Source: a virus
Taxonomy: Duplodnaviria > Heunggongvirae > Uroviricota > Caudoviricetes
IMG/VR virus record: IMGVR_UViG_2609460125_000012
Reading direction: 5' to 3' (one strand)
Length of the DNA stretch: 5,564 nucleotides
The notes below the pieces were generated by a model. The model was not told the origin of the DNA, did no database searches, and saw nothing but the letters and a program-made list of their open reading frames with translations. Shown piece by piece: positions 1 to 5,564 of the stretch. Position 1 is the first letter of the stretch. The number at the start of each line of letters is the position of its first letter. The position numbers and the translations under genes are program-made.

Positions 1-51
1 CTGCATGACAAGGTCATCGGGCATTATCTGAACATAAAACACTATCAGTAA
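1..51 (+). CDS. insB: IS1 transposase InsB, C-terminal end (partial; 5' end outside window)
   Basis: In-frame translation [16 protein letters not shown] with TAA stop at 49-51, 15 bp inside the IS1 terminus. Confidence 0.85.
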   Translation: MHDKVIGHYLNIKHYQ

Positions 52-66
52 GTTGGAGTCATTACC
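1..66 (+). mobile_element. IS1 insertion sequence, right (insB-proximal) terminus; body of element lies upstream of the window
   Basis: Bases 1-51 read in frame as ...[16 protein letters not shown]-stop, which I recognise as the InsB C-terminus, followed by the IS1 terminal inverted repeat gttggagtcattacc ending at 66. Bases 1-66 are the exact reverse complement of 5363-5428. Confidence 0.9.
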
Positions 67-352: not shown

Positions 353-568
353 TTATTCACCTCTCGCAGCCTTACGCTTGTCTTCTCTGATTTTGAAGTA
401 CAGATTTGTCAGATAAGTCAGGAAGCCCAGAACCAGACTCCCCAGTACACCAATCGCAGCCCACTGTGACGGACTGACCTGATCAAGCCACTGTAAAAAC
501 CAGTAGCCAGCACTGCCTGCGGAGGTGCCGTAGGCAATGCCCGTTGAAATTTTGTCCATGGATTTCAT
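353..568 (-). CDS. Class II holin (pinholin), phage 21 S21 / EssD-EssQ family, 71 aa with dual-start motif MKSM
   Basis: ORF translation [71 protein letters not shown] matches my recollection of the phage 21 S holin (Met1 antiholin and Met4 holin starts, two TMDs, basic C-terminus). A GGAGGTGA Shine-Dalgarno lies 6 nt upstream (minus strand, 571-578). Confidence 0.9.
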
Positions 569-675
569 AGCCTCACCTCCGCAAATAACGGATGGCGTAG
601 TTTTACACTGAGAAATGAAAGGGATTTGAAAAGAAAAAACCGCAAAAGCGGGCGAAACGATATATACAGTAAGGA

Positions 676-854
676 AAGCACTCTATCCAACAAACCACTC
701 ACAGTTAATCGGAATAAAAGCAGAGTGCTTATGAATGATCGCCTGCCCGAAGGTTAGTATTTCTGCACAGCAATTTTGCAAAAAAAAGCGATCATTCATA
801 ACTTAAACGTCTTTCAGTCACTCCGGGATTTCCCATCATCGCAGACTGAAAGAC
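676..854. repeat. Three tandem long-loop inverted repeats (potential stem-loops) in the tRNA-holin spacer
   Basis: Perfect inverted repeats read directly: aagcactct 676-684 with agagtgctt 722-730 (9 bp); atgaatgatcgc 731-742 with gcgatcattcat 788-799 (12 bp); gtctttcagt 809-818 with actgaaagac 845-854 (10 bp). Confidence 0.6.
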
Positions 855-1351: not shown

Positions 1352-1380
1352 AATATATGCCTTTTAATCTACTTTTGCAA
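1352..1380 (-). promoter_or_regulatory. Candidate sigma70 late promoter (pR'-like) overlapping the 3' end of the Q-like gene
   Basis: Minus strand reads TTGCAA (1380..1375), a 17-nt spacer, then TATATT (1357..1352). The predicted start near 1345 lies about 70 nt upstream of the terminator at 1275-1305, the arrangement expected for a Q-dependent pR'/qut/tR' unit. Motif match only. Confidence 0.35.
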
Positions 1381-2059
1381 CACTTTGCTTTGAAAATGCC
1401 GTCTTTTTTTTTGAACGTGTTCTCATTACAAACAATAAAGCCTCACTATCCAGTCGGTGAAAAATGTGTTTCATTGCAACCCAGTGACGAGTAAATGTTT
1501 TGGACCAGTTTTTAGTTGTCACTCCCGCCAGTAATGCCAGCTCCTGGTATTCATAACCTTCCCCACCAAAAAGTTCTGCTTTTACTGCCTGCGCCGCCAG
1601 CCAGATTAATTTTTTCAGGCGTTCCTGCGTTTTCCCTGCAATTTTTCTGGTACCGGATTGAGCATTAAATTCATTCCACGCCCACTGTGTTATCGCGATC
1701 TGATATTCCCAACAAATACTCCCGCTGTAACACCACAACAACCAGGCTTTATAGTGCTCTTCAAGAGACAGAACAGCCCGCCGCCACGATGATGTCGAAA
1801 ACTCAACCGGACTGACCAGAGGAATTGACGTCCCCTTCGCCAGCGATTGCTTTCCCGGGATTGGTGGATTATCCCGCGTTATCATTTTTCCAGTCACTTC
1901 ATCGCGGTACCGGATTTTTTTACGCCTGTAACGCCCTGTATCGAACATGGCATTCTCTTGCCAGGCTTCAAGCTGACCTTTTGTTGCCCCACTCAAATCA
2001 GCGGTGGCGATAATGAGCTGCTCACGCACAAACTGTAAATACTGGTTATTCATGCGCAC
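1364..2059 (-). CDS. Putative late-gene antitermination protein Q-like (231 aa); function assigned mainly by position
   Basis: ORF 1364..2059 lies immediately downstream of rusA (10-nt overlap) and immediately upstream of the promoter/terminator pair, tRNA array and holin, which is the canonical lambdoid Q position. It has a C-terminal HTH-like segment (ELALLAGVTTKNWSKTFTRHW). I could not match it to lambda Q or Q21 from memory. Confidence 0.5.
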   Translation of the reverse strand: MRMNNQYLQFVREQLIIATADLSGATKGQLEAWQENAMFDTGRYRRKKIRYRDEVTGKMITRDNPPIPGKQSLAKGTSIPLVSPVEFSTSSWRRAVLSLEEHYKAWLLWCYSGSICWEYQIAITQWAWNEFNAQSGTRKIAGKTQERLKKLIWLAAQAVKAELFGGEGYEYQELALLAGVTTKNWSKTFTRHWVAMKHIFHRLDSEALLFVMRTRSKKKTAFSKQSVAKVD

Positions 2060-2415
2060 CCCAGTTCTGTGATTTTTATCCCCAGCCGCCCACCAGGAAC
2101 GAGCTGACCGCGCACAATATTGATTTCATCAAACTGCTCGTCGTCTATAAGTAGTCCAGCATGCGTCAGCGCATCCAGCGGTGCCTTCAGGATATTGTCC
2201 AGGTCACGACGGCGCTTATCCGGTGGCTCTGCAATAATCTTTATCGCCAGCCTTCCGGACAGGTTTAATTTCAGTCGCTGCTGGCGAACAATTAGCGCCA
2301 CATCACGGCGATAACGCTCACCGGCTTTTGATACAAAATATGTGCTGCCACGACGTCGCCAGTAGGTGTTCACCGTTGGCGGGTAAGGCAAAACAAATTC
2401 TATGCGTTCGGTCAT
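2050..2415 (-). CDS. rusA: Crossover junction endodeoxyribonuclease RusA (Holliday junction resolvase), 121 aa
   Basis: Translation MTERIEFVLPYPPTVNTYWRRRG...PPDKRRRDLDNILKAPLDALTHAGLLIDDEQ...GGRL shares the RusA hallmark motifs with E. coli RusA as I recall it (LPWPPS.N.YYR..., DRRRRDLDN, DALT.AG...DD.Q). Confidence 0.9.
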   Translation of the reverse strand: MTERIEFVLPYPPTVNTYWRRRGSTYFVSKAGERYRRDVALIVRQQRLKLNLSGRLAIKIIAEPPDKRRRDLDNILKAPLDALTHAGLLIDDEQFDEINIVRGQLVPGGRLGIKITELGCA

Positions 2416-3474
2416 TTATGCTTTCCACTTCAGAACACCCGAATTTCTCGCGTGCATTAAAAAACGAATCAGCAACAACAACTGACTACCGTGTTTTTCT
2501 TCAAAATCTTTTACCCCGGCGTGTAGTTCGTTATGGCATTTACGACACAGCGGAATAACAAACAAATCGTCAGCCTTTGTTCCCATCCCTCCCAGTCCAT
2601 GACCAATGATGTGGTGCGGATCATCTGCCTGATTGCCACACGTCATGCATTTCTGCGTTTTTACCCAGCGCGTGTATACAGGCATCTCTTCCCGTTGTGG
2701 TTTCTGGCGCTGGAGATACTGAGCCGGAGATTCCGGATCAACGGCAATGCTGACCACCGTCTCTTCCTGTGGTGGATTCTGTTGCTGGTGGGCGTGAGGC
2801 AGCGGCGCAAGATTTTTTGTGCGCTGCTTCAGTATGCTGGTGGCGGTCTGCTCTCCCGGCACGATGTCGCTTTCACGGTACATTGAGCGGATTTTTTCCG
2901 CACGCAACCCCAGCGAACGACGTAATACCGCTTCCGGTAGCGCGTCCGCCACCTGATTGCGGACCGCCCACCAGGATAATTCAGCCAGAGATAATTCACG
3001 CTCCTGCGTACCGCTTATTGCGTGACCGATGACGTCAATCATCCATGCTGACAGGTTTTGATGAGCAAGTTGCTCGAGTGATTCGGATGTCTGGTCACGC
3101 AGCTGGTTGTCGCAGTGCCAGCACAATACCATTGCGCCGGTACCATAACGGTGAATGACGGTTTCGCTGTGATGATAATCGCCGTGTGGCCACTGGCAGG
3201 ATTTAATATGGCGCAACAGCCAGTCAGACAATGCGCCAGCACCACCAGCAGCACGAATCACCCGTGCGTTACTGAAAAACGGCAGCAATGTTTTGTCTTC
3301 CACTAGCGGCTGGCGAACGGCAGGAACGACCCCGGACGGCAGATTACGCATGCTTTTCGGTTCCGGCTCCACCAGTACCCGGGTATTGTGGAATACCGGC
3401 ATGGATTCACGACCGGGCTTAAGGACCACCAGCCCGAGTTCCGGAACCAGAACAGGTCGAAGTAATACCCGCAC
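2416..3474 (-). CDS. DUF968-family prophage protein (YdfU-like) with Cys/His-rich HNH-like motifs; GTG start, alternative ATG at 3402
   Basis: 352-aa ORF with two Cys/His clusters: HGDYHHSETVIHRYGTGAMVLCWHCDNQ and CMTCGNQADDPHHIIGHG...PLCRKCHNELH. Size and position (upstream of rusA and Q) match the YdfU-type nin-region protein of lambdoid prophages. GGAGG lies 4 nt before the GTG at 3474. Confidence 0.65.
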   Translation of the reverse strand: MRVLLRPVLVPELGLVVLKPGRESMPVFHNTRVLVEPEPKSMRNLPSGVVPAVRQPLVEDKTLLPFFSNARVIRAAGGAGALSDWLLRHIKSCQWPHGDYHHSETVIHRYGTGAMVLCWHCDNQLRDQTSESLEQLAHQNLSAWMIDVIGHAISGTQERELSLAELSWWAVRNQVADALPEAVLRRSLGLRAEKIRSMYRESDIVPGEQTATSILKQRTKNLAPLPHAHQQQNPPQEETVVSIAVDPESPAQYLQRQKPQREEMPVYTRWVKTQKCMTCGNQADDPHHIIGHGLGGMGTKADDLFVIPLCRKCHNELHAGVKDFEEKHGSQLLLLIRFLMHARNSGVLKWKA

Positions 3475-3475
3475 A

Positions 3476-3754
3476 TTACCTCCAGATCCGTTGCTGGAAT
3501 GTGCAGGACGGACGCGGTGGCCGTTCGGAATAAGGGAGCCTGACGAAGATTATCCAGTGACGATAATCGAGACTGAGGGCTTTCTTAATCTCGTATCCGT
3601 GTCTGCGGTAGCGCTGAATCAGCCATTCAGCCTGTTCTTCGGTGCAGGGGTCGTGCTGATACCCGTCAGATTTGAATGCATGAGAACGCCGCCCGTGCCT
3701 GCTGGCAGGGGCGGCAGAGTTATCCGAATTGTAAAATTTGGTATCGTGCGCCAT
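3476..3754 (-). CDS. Hypothetical small nin-region protein (92 aa from internal ATG; ORF track extends to a GTG at 3883)
   Basis: Open frame MAHDTKFYNSDNSAAPASRHGRRSHAFKSDGYQHDPCTEEQAEWLIQRYRRHGYEIKKALSLDYRHWIIF... The longer GTG-initiated version would overlap the hok terminator hairpin, so the internal ATG is preferred. The Shine-Dalgarno is weak. It sits where Qin-type prophages carry a small gene (rem) between hok and the DUF968 gene; that homology is unverified. Confidence 0.4.
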   Translation of the reverse strand: MAHDTKFYNSDNSAAPASRHGRRSHAFKSDGYQHDPCTEEQAEWLIQRYRRHGYEIKKALSLDYRHWIIFVRLPYSERPPRPSCTFQQRIWR

Positions 3755-3825
3755 CTGTTTTCTCTGCTGGCGCAGCAGGTGCCAGTTGTTCAGGCTGACG
3801 GATGGATTGTAAACCAGAACGACCA

Positions 3826-3853
3826 GAAAAAACAAAACCCGCCGAAGCGGGTT
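3826..3853 (-). terminator. Rho-independent terminator at the 3' end of the hok mRNA
   Basis: Minus strand reads aacccgc-ttcg-gcgggtt (a UUCG tetraloop hairpin) followed by ttgttttttc; plus-strand arms are acccgc 3837-3842 and gcgggt 3847-3852. Confidence 0.7.
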
Positions 3854-3921
3854 AAGTGCGGGTGCGTTGAGGATGCCTGACACATCAGCGGTGGCGAGGG
3901 ATTTCTCCCCCGCCGGGTCTC

Positions 3922-4077
3922 TTACTCCTCAGGTTCGTAAGCTGTGAAGACAGCGACCTCCGTCTGGCCGGTTCGGATTCGTACCTCGCAGAGGTCTTTC
4001 CTCGTTACCAGTGCCGTCACTATGACGGTTAAACAGATGACGATCAGGGCGATTAACATCGCCTTTTGCTGCTTCAT
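3922..4077 (-). CDS. hokD: Hok/Gef-family type I toxin (51 aa), HokD/RelF-like
   Basis: Translation MKQQKAMLIALIVICLTVIVTALVTRKDLCEVRIRTGQTEVAVFTAYEPEE matches my recollection of HokD (RelF). AAGGAG Shine-Dalgarno sits 8 nt upstream (minus strand). The ORF track's 70-aa version starts at an in-frame upstream ATG (4134). Confidence 0.9.
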   Translation of the reverse strand: MKQQKAMLIALIVICLTVIVTALVTRKDLCEVRIRTGQTEVAVFTAYEPEE

Positions 4078-4281
4078 AGCCTGCTTCTCCTTGCCTTTCG
4101 GCACGTAAGAGGCTAACCTACATGTGTTCAGCATGGATTGAGCCTCAGATTAATGTTAAGCGTCTTGCAGGACGCGTAATGTTAACTGGGGCTTTTCTCT
4201 ATCTGCCTTTTGGTGTTCATGCCTGAGACAGATAGCCTCAAGCACCCGCAGTCATTCTACTTAACTAAGATTTCCCTGCAA
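4078..4281 (-). promoter_or_regulatory. hok mRNA leader with candidate promoter, 5' tac-like element and mok-equivalent start
   Basis: Minus-strand -35 TTGCAG (4281..4276), 16-nt spacer, -10 TAGAAT (4259..4254). The predicted 5' end tgcgggtgcttgaggc resembles the plasmid R1 hok mRNA 5' end as I recall it. An upstream ATG at 4134 sits at the position mok occupies in R1. The 5' segment (about 4236-4250) is complementary to the 3' segment cctcaacgcacccgca near 3855-3875. Confidence 0.5.
4126..4195 (+). ncRNA. Candidate Sok-like antisense RNA (coordinates approximate)
   Basis: On the plus strand, TTGCCT (4091-4096), a 17-nt spacer, then TAACCT (4114-4119) form a promoter-like pair antisense to the mok/hok translation initiation region. 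A downstream hairpin gcgtc-ttgcag-gacgc lies at 4160-4175. This matches the position of sok in hok/sok loci. Inferred, not verified. Confidence 0.35.
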
Positions 4282-4336
4282 ACCGTTTTTGTCCGGCACA
4301 GTAAATATCCAACTAAACCAATAGCGTTCGCTGTAT

Positions 4337-4516
4337 TTACCGCCAGTATTCAATGCACATGACCGCCATGAACACCCCTAAAAAAAGGGCATTTATATGT
4401 CCAAACATTAATATCAAAACATCAATTTTTTCCATATACCTTGCTGTGAAGATGATGGGCATACATGATGCGAACAACCAGAACGCAACAAACAAAAACT
4501 GCAATGCGTTTTTCAT
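4337..4516 (-). CDS. Hypothetical small hydrophobic peptide (59 aa, two predicted TM segments) in an AT-rich island
   Basis: Frame MKNALQFLFVAFWLFASCMPIIFTARYMEKIDVLILMFGHINALFLGVFMAVMCIEYWR with AGGGGG Shine-Dalgarno about 6 nt upstream of the ATG at 4516. The surrounding region (about 4340-4700) is markedly AT-rich, so this could also be a chance ORF in a regulatory region. Confidence 0.25.
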   Translation of the reverse strand: MKNALQFLFVAFWLFASCMPIIFTARYMEKIDVLILMFGHINALFLGVFMAVMCIEYWR

Positions 4517-4728
4517 TATTCCCCCTACAATCAATGTGCAATAACATTTAAACACACCTCAATTTGGCCGGACATATAAATATCTAAACCAGAAAAAATC
4601 ACTTACATAGCGTTACAAACTCTTTAGTCTAAATACTCATCGTAAAACATTCCCCATACTTATCAGTCCGTTCCGCGCCAGGTAGCTTATTGCCTTATCT
4701 GGCAACCTATAATCAGGTTTCCGCTTTT

Positions 4729-5151
4729 TCAGTTGGCTGGTCGTTTAACCGACATAGTTAACCCATTAATCTGGTTGCCGGATGCTGGTGGATTTTCGCG
4801 TTTTAATTGTTCATAAAAGTGCACAGCTTTAACCAGTTCTTCTGATGTAACCGGGACTGGTGGGGCAGTGAATAAGGCCTGAATTTCATAGTTCGGCCTG
4901 TCGTTACAATCCTCTTTTTTCGGTACATATTTCCAGTCACCAACCCACAACTCCCCCTGAGAGTCCATAACACCTTTTTTCACGTAGCGATATCGCCACG
5001 CTATCGGCTCTGCTTCCAGCGATGCCCGTGCAATTTTGAATAACTCGCCCTCTACTCGCGCCATCCCTGAATTGGGGTGGCATTTCGTAATCGCTATTTT
5101 TAATTTGGCTTCTTCGATTAATTGTTCTTTTGTTAATTCAGTCATTTTCAT
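4729..5151 (-). CDS. Hypothetical protein, 140 aa, no family recognised
   Basis: Clean 140-codon ORF (MKMTELTKEQLIEEAKLKIAITK...WVGDWKYVPKKEDCNDRP...) with balanced composition and a TTA-rich codon choice suggesting foreign origin. The antisense ORF 5036..5224 is less plausible. Confidence 0.55.
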   Translation of the reverse strand: MKMTELTKEQLIEEAKLKIAITKCHPNSGMARVEGELFKIARASLEAEPIAWRYRYVKKGVMDSQGELWVGDWKYVPKKEDCNDRPNYEIQALFTAPPVPVTSEELVKAVHFYEQLKRENPPASGNQINGLTMSVKRPAN

Positions 5152-5362
5152 TACCGCCCTGGTAATGCTGCCACCAGCGAAAATGGTTAATGGAAAACGG
5201 GCTTCCGTTCTATACCAATCGTAGTGGCAAACCGATTGTCAGCCGGGATCTATTTACCTGCAATAAAACTTTACCACCACGCGAGGTAGAGCCGAATTTT
5301 GGTGCGATCTGATGGGAAGACGAAGGAAAAATCCTGAACACGAAAAATTACCTCCAAATGTA

Positions 5363-5564
5363 GGTAATGACTCCAACTTACTGATAGTGTTTTATGTTCA
5401 GATAATGCCCGATGACCTTGTCATGCAGCTCCACCGATTTTGAGAACGACAGTGACTTCCGTACCAGCCTTGCCAGATGTTGTCTCAGATTCAGATTATG
5501 TCGCTCAATGCGCTGAGTGTAACGCTTGCTGATAACGTGCAGCTTTCCCTTCAGGCGTGATTCA
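5363..5564 (-). mobile_element. IS1 insertion sequence, right terminus, inverted relative to the copy at 1-66; body continues beyond window end
   Basis: ggtaatgactccaacttactgatag... from 5363 is the IS1 terminal inverted repeat. 5363-5428 is the exact reverse complement of 1-66, and the internal sequence continues as IS1-like insB-region sequence to 5564. Confidence 0.9.
5378..5564 (-). CDS. insB: IS1 transposase InsB, C-terminal part (partial; 5' end outside window)
   Basis: Reverse complement of 5378-5428 encodes ...[16 protein letters not shown]-stop, identical to 1-51. The frame stays open to the window edge. Confidence 0.85.

Follow-up and report, generated by a model that had tools for sequence, protein, structure and literature searches.

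Several described RNAs lie next to tRNA genes or in the operons of lambdoid phages. In Escherichia coli, 3'ETS-leuZ (glyW-cysT-leuZ operon) and RtT (tyrT operon) are tRNA-operon trailer RNAs, which lie between the last tRNA and the operon terminator and arise as byproducts of tRNA maturation; these operons have their own promoter with a GC-rich discriminator. In phage T4, the stable RNAs called 'species 1 and 2' sit in the tRNA cluster. In lambdoid phages, HK639 is known for RNA-mediated antitermination, and the put RNAs of HK022 and HK639 are cis-encoded structured RNAs that lie in an operon upstream of terminators. GOLLD and ROOL are phage-encoded, conserved, elaborately folded and tRNA-adjacent RNAs whose function is partly known at best (PMC12286853). 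Finally, the 'moron' sRNAs of lambdoid prophages (the Pas sRNAs, AgvB and AsxR) are found after Q/PR' and shortly before the gene for the class II holin (PMC8550237 table S6; bioRxiv 10.64898/2026.05.13.724894; PMC4104026). Among them, PasD (EcOnc13) is sense-oriented, ∼172 nt long and ended by a terminator, whereas PasA, PasC, AgvB and AsxR are 51-85 nt long and convergent to the late operon (AgvB and AsxR, 51-60 nt; PMC4104026).

Here, we have analyzed a 5,564-nt stretch of DNA (IMG/VR record IMGVR_UViG_2609460125_000012, hereafter the window), which is a fragment of a lambda-like prophage with all relevant genes on the minus strand. The neighbouring genes and signals are as follows.

3922-4134, minus strand: ORF for a Hok toxin of the Hok/Gef family
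4072-4247, minus strand: sok RNA (118.9 bits, Rfam)
2416-3474, minus strand: DUF968 protein gene
2050-2415, minus strand: RusA gene
1364-2059, minus strand: antiterminator Q gene
1278-1301: terminator-like hairpin, called by the consensus scan on the plus strand only
353-568, minus strand: P21-type (class II) holin gene, with which the lysis genes downstream begin (listed as context; it lies outside the RNA)

Both ends of the window (1-65 and ∼5367-5564) are presumably IS1 termini. The lysozyme gene that follows the holin gene in relatives is absent here (45-352), and with the IS1-like ends this indicates that the prophage is a remnant cut just downstream of the holin gene. The window is 99.7% identical over a 1147-nt overlap to Shigella flexneri SFBU1023, which has two copies of the RNA element described below. 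Two side observations concern the neighbourhood. The minus-strand region 3922-4247 is a complete hok/sok type I toxin-antitoxin locus. In addition, the minus-strand stretch from the end of Q to the tR'-like terminator (1276-1349) gave sub-threshold Rfam matches to the Salmonella prophage sRNAs isrK (21.8 bits) and isrJ (23.2 bits); the hairpin at 1278-1301 is also followed by a T-run on the minus strand (by eye), which matches the expectation for tR', and the stretch probably represents the PR'-tR' short transcript. Such a transcript acts as an sRNA (StxS) in Stx phages (PMC7547250).

The spacer between tRNA-Gly and the holin start is 292 nt long (569-860), and the initial annotation had described three perfect inverted repeats in it. 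A search of 560-870 found exactly three, at the positions reported:

676-684/722-730: inverted repeat of 9 bp with a 37-nt loop
729-742/788-801: inverted repeat of 14 bp with a 45-nt loop
809-819/844-854: inverted repeat of 11 bp with a 24-nt loop

The first arm length had been given correctly as 9 bp; the other two had been measured too short (12 and 10 bp). The first two repeats are indeed adjacent, as had been noted at 730/731, but rather than merely abutting they share bases 729-730. That one arm pair begins with ATGAATGATCGC on both strands, another early remark, holds for every palindrome. When the spacer was shuffled 3000 times with its dinucleotides preserved, the mean count of perfect inverted repeats (arms of 9 bp or more, loops no longer than 60 nt) was 0.043; at least one was present in 126 shuffles and at least two in 3, and three were never reached. 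The spacer RNA of the minus strand folded with z = −4.33, and the three hairpins folded singly gave z values of −3.7, −4.7 and −4.7.

Each of the three repeats corresponds to a domain that folds on its own within a single conserved non-coding RNA; we call these domains modules A, B and C (in the order of transcription). Their main parts are listed here, all on the minus strand.

809-854: module A (the 809-819/844-854 repeat), a hairpin whose outer stem has 11 bp and whose internal loop resembles a kink-turn
729-801: module B (the 729-742/788-801 repeat), a 14-15-bp outer stem carrying two small inner hairpins in a Y-shaped junction
766-784: almost invariant 19-nt RNA stretch of module B, UUUUUGCAAAAUUGCUGUG
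746-753: mini-hairpin CC-UUCG-GG of module B
676-730: module C (the 676-684/722-730 repeat), in which an internal loop separates the outer stem of 9 bp from an inner stem of 10-11 bp rich in G.U pairs
685-698: invariant RNA strand of module C, G(U)GGUUUGUUGGAU

To search for homologs, IMG/VR was scanned with two conserved words, and BLAST was run over all sequences fetched to that point. A total of 114 loci with a homolog were obtained, mostly IMG/VR viral contigs (designated below by L numbers where needed), which fell into 34 clusters at 96% identity. The most diverged homologs were ∼51-57% identical to the window over the extracted stretch of ∼320 nt. The spacer stretch was also present in 530 of 5426 complete E. 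coli genomes (∼10%), in most of them with at least 95% identity; these copies were chromosomal in every case and annotated in none. Five phage records carried the element: HK639 (76% identity over 687-851), the Stx2e phage phi467, vB_EcoS-689R5, PhiR47_1 and vB_EcoM-606R7. When single-species representative genomes were searched with a stricter two-part pattern, Escherichia, Shigella, Enterobacter, Citrobacter, Yokenella and Phytobacter were positive. As far as sampled, the element is confined to temperate lambdoid phages of Enterobacteriaceae. No conserved ORF was found across its homologs.

We aligned 24 non-redundant full A-B-C copies with MAFFT and derived their common structure with RNAalifold, which yielded seven helices with 60 pairs, in agreement with the single-sequence fold. 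The pairing was almost complete: 97.1% of cells were paired in the 24 A-B-C copies and 97.8% in 32 B-C copies, compared with 40-48% and 35-50%, respectively, when the partners were slid. Cells changed on both sides numbered 67 (A-B-C) and 65 (B-C), counts that overstate the independent events since much of the covariation separates two main clades, against 22 ± 4 and 21 ± 5 in shuffles, none of which reached the observed value (0 of 500 in each set). Such changes were found at ten pairs, which belong to the outer stem of each hairpin and to an inner helix of B. The outer stem of module C occurs as CACUCU/AGAGUG, CACUCC/GGAGUG, CACCUU/AAGGUG and CAUCUC/GAGGUG, and these several variants imply several independent changes; an isolated module C in the distant locus L124 has a newly compensated outer stem, CACAUUAC/GUAGUGUG. 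In the inner stem of this module, the 3' strand GGUUUGUUGGA is almost invariant and the 5' strand varies compatibly.

The alignment also bears on the strand. Some pairs are G.U in every sequence, and others switch among G.U, A-U and G-C. The fold energy was −68.4 kcal/mol for the minus-strand RNA vs −50.1 kcal/mol for the plus strand. Because an invariant G.U pair would be a C.A mismatch on the opposite strand, and because the minus strand folds better, the structure resides on RNA of the tRNA and late-operon sense and cannot be a palindrome of the DNA alone. Thus, comparative sequence evidence shows the fold to be present on the minus-strand RNA and under selection. The earlier proposal of a structured RNA on the late minus-strand transcript is borne out by the covariation in relatives and the invariant G.U pairs: in homologous prophages, double-sided changes keep the pairing in all three outer stems.

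Conservation is highest in the loops, namely the kink-turn core of A, the 19-nt stretch of B and the G/U-rich strand of C. The initial annotation had missed this, as well as the kink-turn signature of A and the fact that the hairpins are separable. The internal loop of module A is asymmetric (5 nt vs 2 nt; 5'-UGC GAU GA UGGG ... CCCG GA GUG-3'). Its sequence pattern comprises a Watson-Crick C-stem closed by the pair C841-G821, a 3-nt bulge (G840 A839 U838), tandem G837.A822 and A836.G823, and an NC stem formed by 832-835 with 824-827, which opens with U835.G824 and is capped by an apical loop (828-831). Thus, the loop matches the consensus of a kink-turn motif, the assignment resting on the sequence pattern. 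Module A resembles K-turn RNAs such as Kt-7 and box C/D hairpins in the C-G-closed stem, the 3-nt bulge (GAU, or GAA in L124), the tandem G.A/A.G and the NC stem, at positions that are invariant in A; all 23 distinct cores carry GA on the bulged strand, 22 of them carry GA on the opposite strand, and 22 keep the C-G closing pair. By comparison, the apical loop had 13 different sequences among the 23 distinct hairpins. In the distant module A of L124 the G.A positions are kept and the 3b.3n pair is changed from U.G to A-U. To our knowledge, E. coli lacks an L7Ae-type kink-turn-binding protein, and we know of no L7Ae-family partner in the enterobacterial host. We also considered, and rejected, a pseudoknot in which the apical loop of A would pair with the linker joining A to B, since by eye the two can pair in some clades (AAAU/GUUU, GUC/GAC) and not in others (UUC, UUU).

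The modules need not occur together. In four clusters tRNA-Gly is followed directly by B, without A; in four clusters B-C lies after inserted DNA; and L018 and L124 have A-B without C, L124 carrying a lone module C ∼1 kb upstream of its tRNA/A/B unit. These arrangements in the sequenced loci show that A, B and C can occur separately. As a separate observation, the isolated C of L124 (5529-5633, plus strand) adjoins an ORF of 1050 aa on the opposite strand (2261-5413, minus strand), which might be a defence-type moron.

Upstream of the element lies an array of tRNA genes with a promoter, and downstream of it a terminator-like hairpin. These features, all on the minus strand, are as follows.

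1180-1208: candidate sigma-70-type promoter of the tRNA operon (TTGCAA, 17 nt, TATTAT, then a GC-rich discriminator, CCTGCGCCC, to the tRNA 5' end; consensus scan)
1095-1170: tRNA with anticodon CAT, first of the array (Met by ARAGORN, tRNA-Ile in RefSeq)
1017-1093: tRNA-Lys(UUU), in the position of the array that we call slot X
939-1014: tRNA-Thr(UGU)
861-935: tRNA-Gly(UCC), the last tRNA
634-653: intrinsic-terminator-like hairpin CCGC-UUUU-GCGG followed by U6

The 3' CCA of tRNA-Gly ends 6 nt before hairpin A in the window and 6-8 nt before it among homologs. In 37 related loci the array almost always had the order Ile2(CAT), X, Thr(UGU), Gly(UCC) and was closed by the element. Most homologs of the element directly follow tRNA-Gly, either intact or reduced to a relic of its 3' end. 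The second tRNA was variable (seen in L011, L026, L052, L110, L118, L142, L151, L154, L165 and others): slot X could be occupied elsewhere by Arg(UCU), Phe(AAA), Leu(UAA), a tRNA with the 'stop' anticodon UUA, or tRNAs whose anticodon loops are abnormal and to which ARAGORN assigns no name. In HK639 and L018 a tRNA-Asn stands in place of the array. Even so, HK639 (L001) retains a degenerate tRNA-Gly directly before the element (3177-3248, minus strand), which scored 27.5 bits vs the Rfam threshold of 29 and was not called by ARAGORN.

Across the arrays the candidate promoter consists of a −35 hexamer TTGCNN, a 17-nt spacer, a −10 hexamer TAT(T/C)AT and a GC-rich discriminator, and lies 9-10 nt before the first tRNA. 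This distance implies a leader of only ∼2-3 nt. Hexamers and spacing were kept in 22 of 25 arrays, and the DNA further upstream was unrelated. The phage tRNA operon is possibly under stringent control. In HK639-type phages, tRNA-Asn abuts tR' and there is no dedicated promoter.

On the other side of the element, a canonical terminator was found 12-75 nt downstream in 24 of 33 representative loci (12-26 nt past hairpin C where C was located), with a second one close by in about a third; a simple scan found no canonical terminator in about a quarter. HK639-type terminators have stems of 8-10 pairs (G.U included) and are often doubled, and in HK639 itself three further annotated terminators separate the element from the holin gene. 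In the window, the hairpin with a U-tract that had been noticed near the holin gene was found again (634-651, minus strand) and is weak, as had been said: the stem has 4 bp (−6.6 kcal/mol, z = −1.9), and the consensus scan made no call. Close relatives have GCCCGC-UUUU-GCGGGC, from which two substitutions have led to a shorter stem and a longer U-tract in the window; this weakening may reflect decay in a defective prophage. Taken together, the sequenced loci show array order, promoter hexamers and downstream terminators to be conserved, and promoter, tRNAs, A-B-C and terminator together resemble a self-contained 'moron' inserted between the Q gene and the lysis cassette.

We then compared the element with known RNAs. 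The Rfam search that had been proposed found no family for it: with Rfam 15 (4227 models, region 300-1500, E up to 10) nothing was reported inside 569-860, apart from one sub-threshold match that lies mostly over tRNA-Gly and reaches 850. At the gathering score the whole window contained only the four tRNAs and sok. The HK639 copy gave only sub-threshold matches, over hairpin C and the terminator (istR, 26/45 bits; isrB, 22.5/35; rsmX, 21.7/56). A search of openly accessible literature for the invariant strings or the element found no description.

Several specific relationships were considered and rejected. An origin from tRNA was not supported, since 569-860 had no match to a tRNA model and A, B and C resembled the four tRNAs no better than shuffles did (best, 39 of 1000, uncorrected for 24 tests). 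Mimicry of GcvB was suggested by the shared 9-mer GTCTGCGAT, the longest word in common apart from a poly-U run, and by the G/U-rich strand of C; however, a shared word as long as the longest one overall (10 nt) also arose in 143 of 2000 shuffles, and the element had no match to the GcvB model of Rfam. Comparison with the Pas sRNAs of E2348/69 (PasA, PasC, PasD1 and PasD2, published coordinates) gave best BLAST words of 9-12 nt with E of at least 0.1 and one 18-nt stretch with 94% identity (E 0.8), and a covariance model of B+C (R1) found nothing in three E2348/69 Pas loci (L173-L175).

What remains is likeness of position and kind. The element shares its niche with the Pas sRNAs and, like PasD, is sense-oriented; PasA, PasC, AgvB and AsxR differ from it in size and orientation and, unlike it, are not tied to a tRNA array. 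With 3'ETS-leuZ and RtT it shares the position between the last tRNA and a terminator, in a unit that has its own promoter except in HK639-type phages, as judged at the sequence level; it differs in being phage-borne and ∼4 times longer than 3'ETS-leuZ, in having three structured domains with a kink-turn signature, and in giving no match to RtT. The T4 RNAs are alike in their adjacency to tRNAs. GOLLD and ROOL are much larger, and their Rfam models gave no match. The put RNAs have another architecture. A-B-C apparently represents an RNA family that has not been described before, familiar in its general kind but with an unusual modular architecture that includes a kink-turn-like motif.

Which function does this context suggest? 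A processing site, an attenuator and a small RNA had been put forward at the outset, and the context would favour a discrete RNA, as follows. On balance, we consider it probable that A-B-C is the 3' trailer RNA of a self-contained phage tRNA operon (promoter, tRNAs, A-B-C, terminator), released by processing and termination. By analogy with glyW-cysT-leuZ and tyrT of E. coli, the operon would be transcribed from its own promoter in the lysogen; RNase P and an endonucleolytic cut just after the CCA of tRNA-Gly would free the tRNAs; and the 3' end of the trailer would be set by the intrinsic terminator, giving a stable RNA of ∼225 nt (∼860 to 634). In the lysogen, the same terminator would also shield the holin gene from transcription of the operon. 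Once the prophage is induced, polymerase that started at PR' and was modified by Q would read through, so that A, B and C would also be present on the late transcript. We infer release, stability and action in trans from this analogy, and several points weigh against the trailer reading. The ends, stability and abundance of the RNA are all deduced from sequence; about a quarter of the loci appear to lack a canonical terminator in a simple scan, and that of the window is weak; the covariation mostly splits two clades, and the kink-turn is assigned from its pattern. In addition, HK639-type phages, which have no dedicated promoter, could produce the element only when transcription from PR' reads through, and this would be just as compatible with a role on the late transcript.

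Such a role in cis is the next candidate, although we regard it as rather unlikely. After excision of the tRNAs from the Q-antiterminated late transcript, the mRNA for lysis and morphogenesis would start a few nucleotides ahead of hairpin A, and the stacked hairpins would protect its 5'-monophosphate end from RNase E, or serve as sites for RNase III or RNase E, and thereby set the level and timing of holin. It is consistent with the orientation of the element, which is always sense to the late operon, with its start 6-8 nt past the CCA of tRNA-Gly and usually shortly upstream of the lysis genes, and with the absence of a separate promoter in HK639-type phages. However, a protective 5' hairpin needs no invariant loops, kink-turn or three different domains, and one or two terminators separate the element from the lysis genes in most loci. 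Furthermore, B and C also occur after inserted DNA without a tRNA directly upstream, and the C of L124 stands alone, far from lysis genes.

An effect on termination itself, with the element aiding insulation or serving as an attenuator, appears improbable. The element lies directly upstream of terminators that part a probably constitutive promoter from lethal lysis genes, and the doubling of these terminators in many relatives shows that insulation matters here; hairpins that pause polymerase or tighten termination could, in a lysogen, keep transcripts begun at the tRNA promoter from ever extending into the holin gene. Nevertheless, terminators function without structured domains upstream, neither a fold competing with the terminator hairpin nor an anti-terminator pairing was evident, and the strict conservation of the loops would be left unexplained.

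Very improbable, in our view, is a processive antiterminator of the put type, in which the RNA, while being made, would attach to the transcribing polymerase and let it pass the terminators downstream. A structured RNA followed by several terminators and then a long operon is indeed the layout of put and EAR, and the element is present in HK639. On the other hand, the B+C model had no match at E up to 1 in the 40.7-kb genome of HK022, which carries putL and putR; the phages with the element encode a Q protein; and with a conserved promoter upstream, an antiterminator would lead to holin expression in lysogens and should therefore kill them. The dimensions also differ, with ∼190 nt, three domains and a kink-turn-like motif in the late region here vs ∼70 nt and two stems just downstream of an early promoter for put (PMC9378689).

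Finally, we give hardly any credence to incidental palindromes, to DNA-level symmetry such as protein sites (the other option of the initial annotation) or recombination scars, or to a small-protein gene: perfect palindromes can be DNA sites, and window-type copies have a 38-codon ORF that starts at the ATG of the second repeat and is annotated as a hypothetical protein in two phage records, but the shuffles never reproduced the three repeats, the pairing is kept by G.U and compensatory changes on one strand only, with an asymmetric kink-turn-like loop and a variable 5' arm opposite the G/U-rich strand, and the ORF is confined to one clade, being cut to 10-25 codons or changed in frame in most others.

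Returning to the trailer RNA, conservation that peaks at the kink-turn core of A, the stretch of B and the strand of C leads us to expect that the RNA acts by being bound and not simply as a hairpin; its probable partner is another RNA or a protein, encoded by either host or phage. Ile and Thr tRNA species, to which constant members of the array belong, have been reported as targets of prophage anticodon nucleases (PMC13043305; also PMC10264068), and the tRNA array may serve counter-defence rather than codon supply. A more specific proposal, which we offer as speculation with little weight, is that A-B-C works with the tRNA array as a decoy or scaffold, whose kink-turn and invariant loops would trap an RNA-binding factor of the host or a defence nuclease directed at tRNAs; the operon would then be a cassette for counter-defence or host takeover, not for codon supply.

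Our data indicate that about one in ten complete E. coli genomes, as well as Stx2e phages and S. flexneri, carry an unannotated RNA element, and that a well-conserved fold lies between Q and the lysis genes, among the best-studied regions of phage genomes. If the RNA is stable, it would represent a new family among the prophage RNAs that act on the host, a clear phage case of a tRNA-operon trailer RNA, and an instance of a kink-turn-like motif in a host apparently without the usual kink-turn-binding proteins. Its link to an array with a hypervariable tRNA offers a way into the old question of what purpose the tRNA genes of temperate phages serve.
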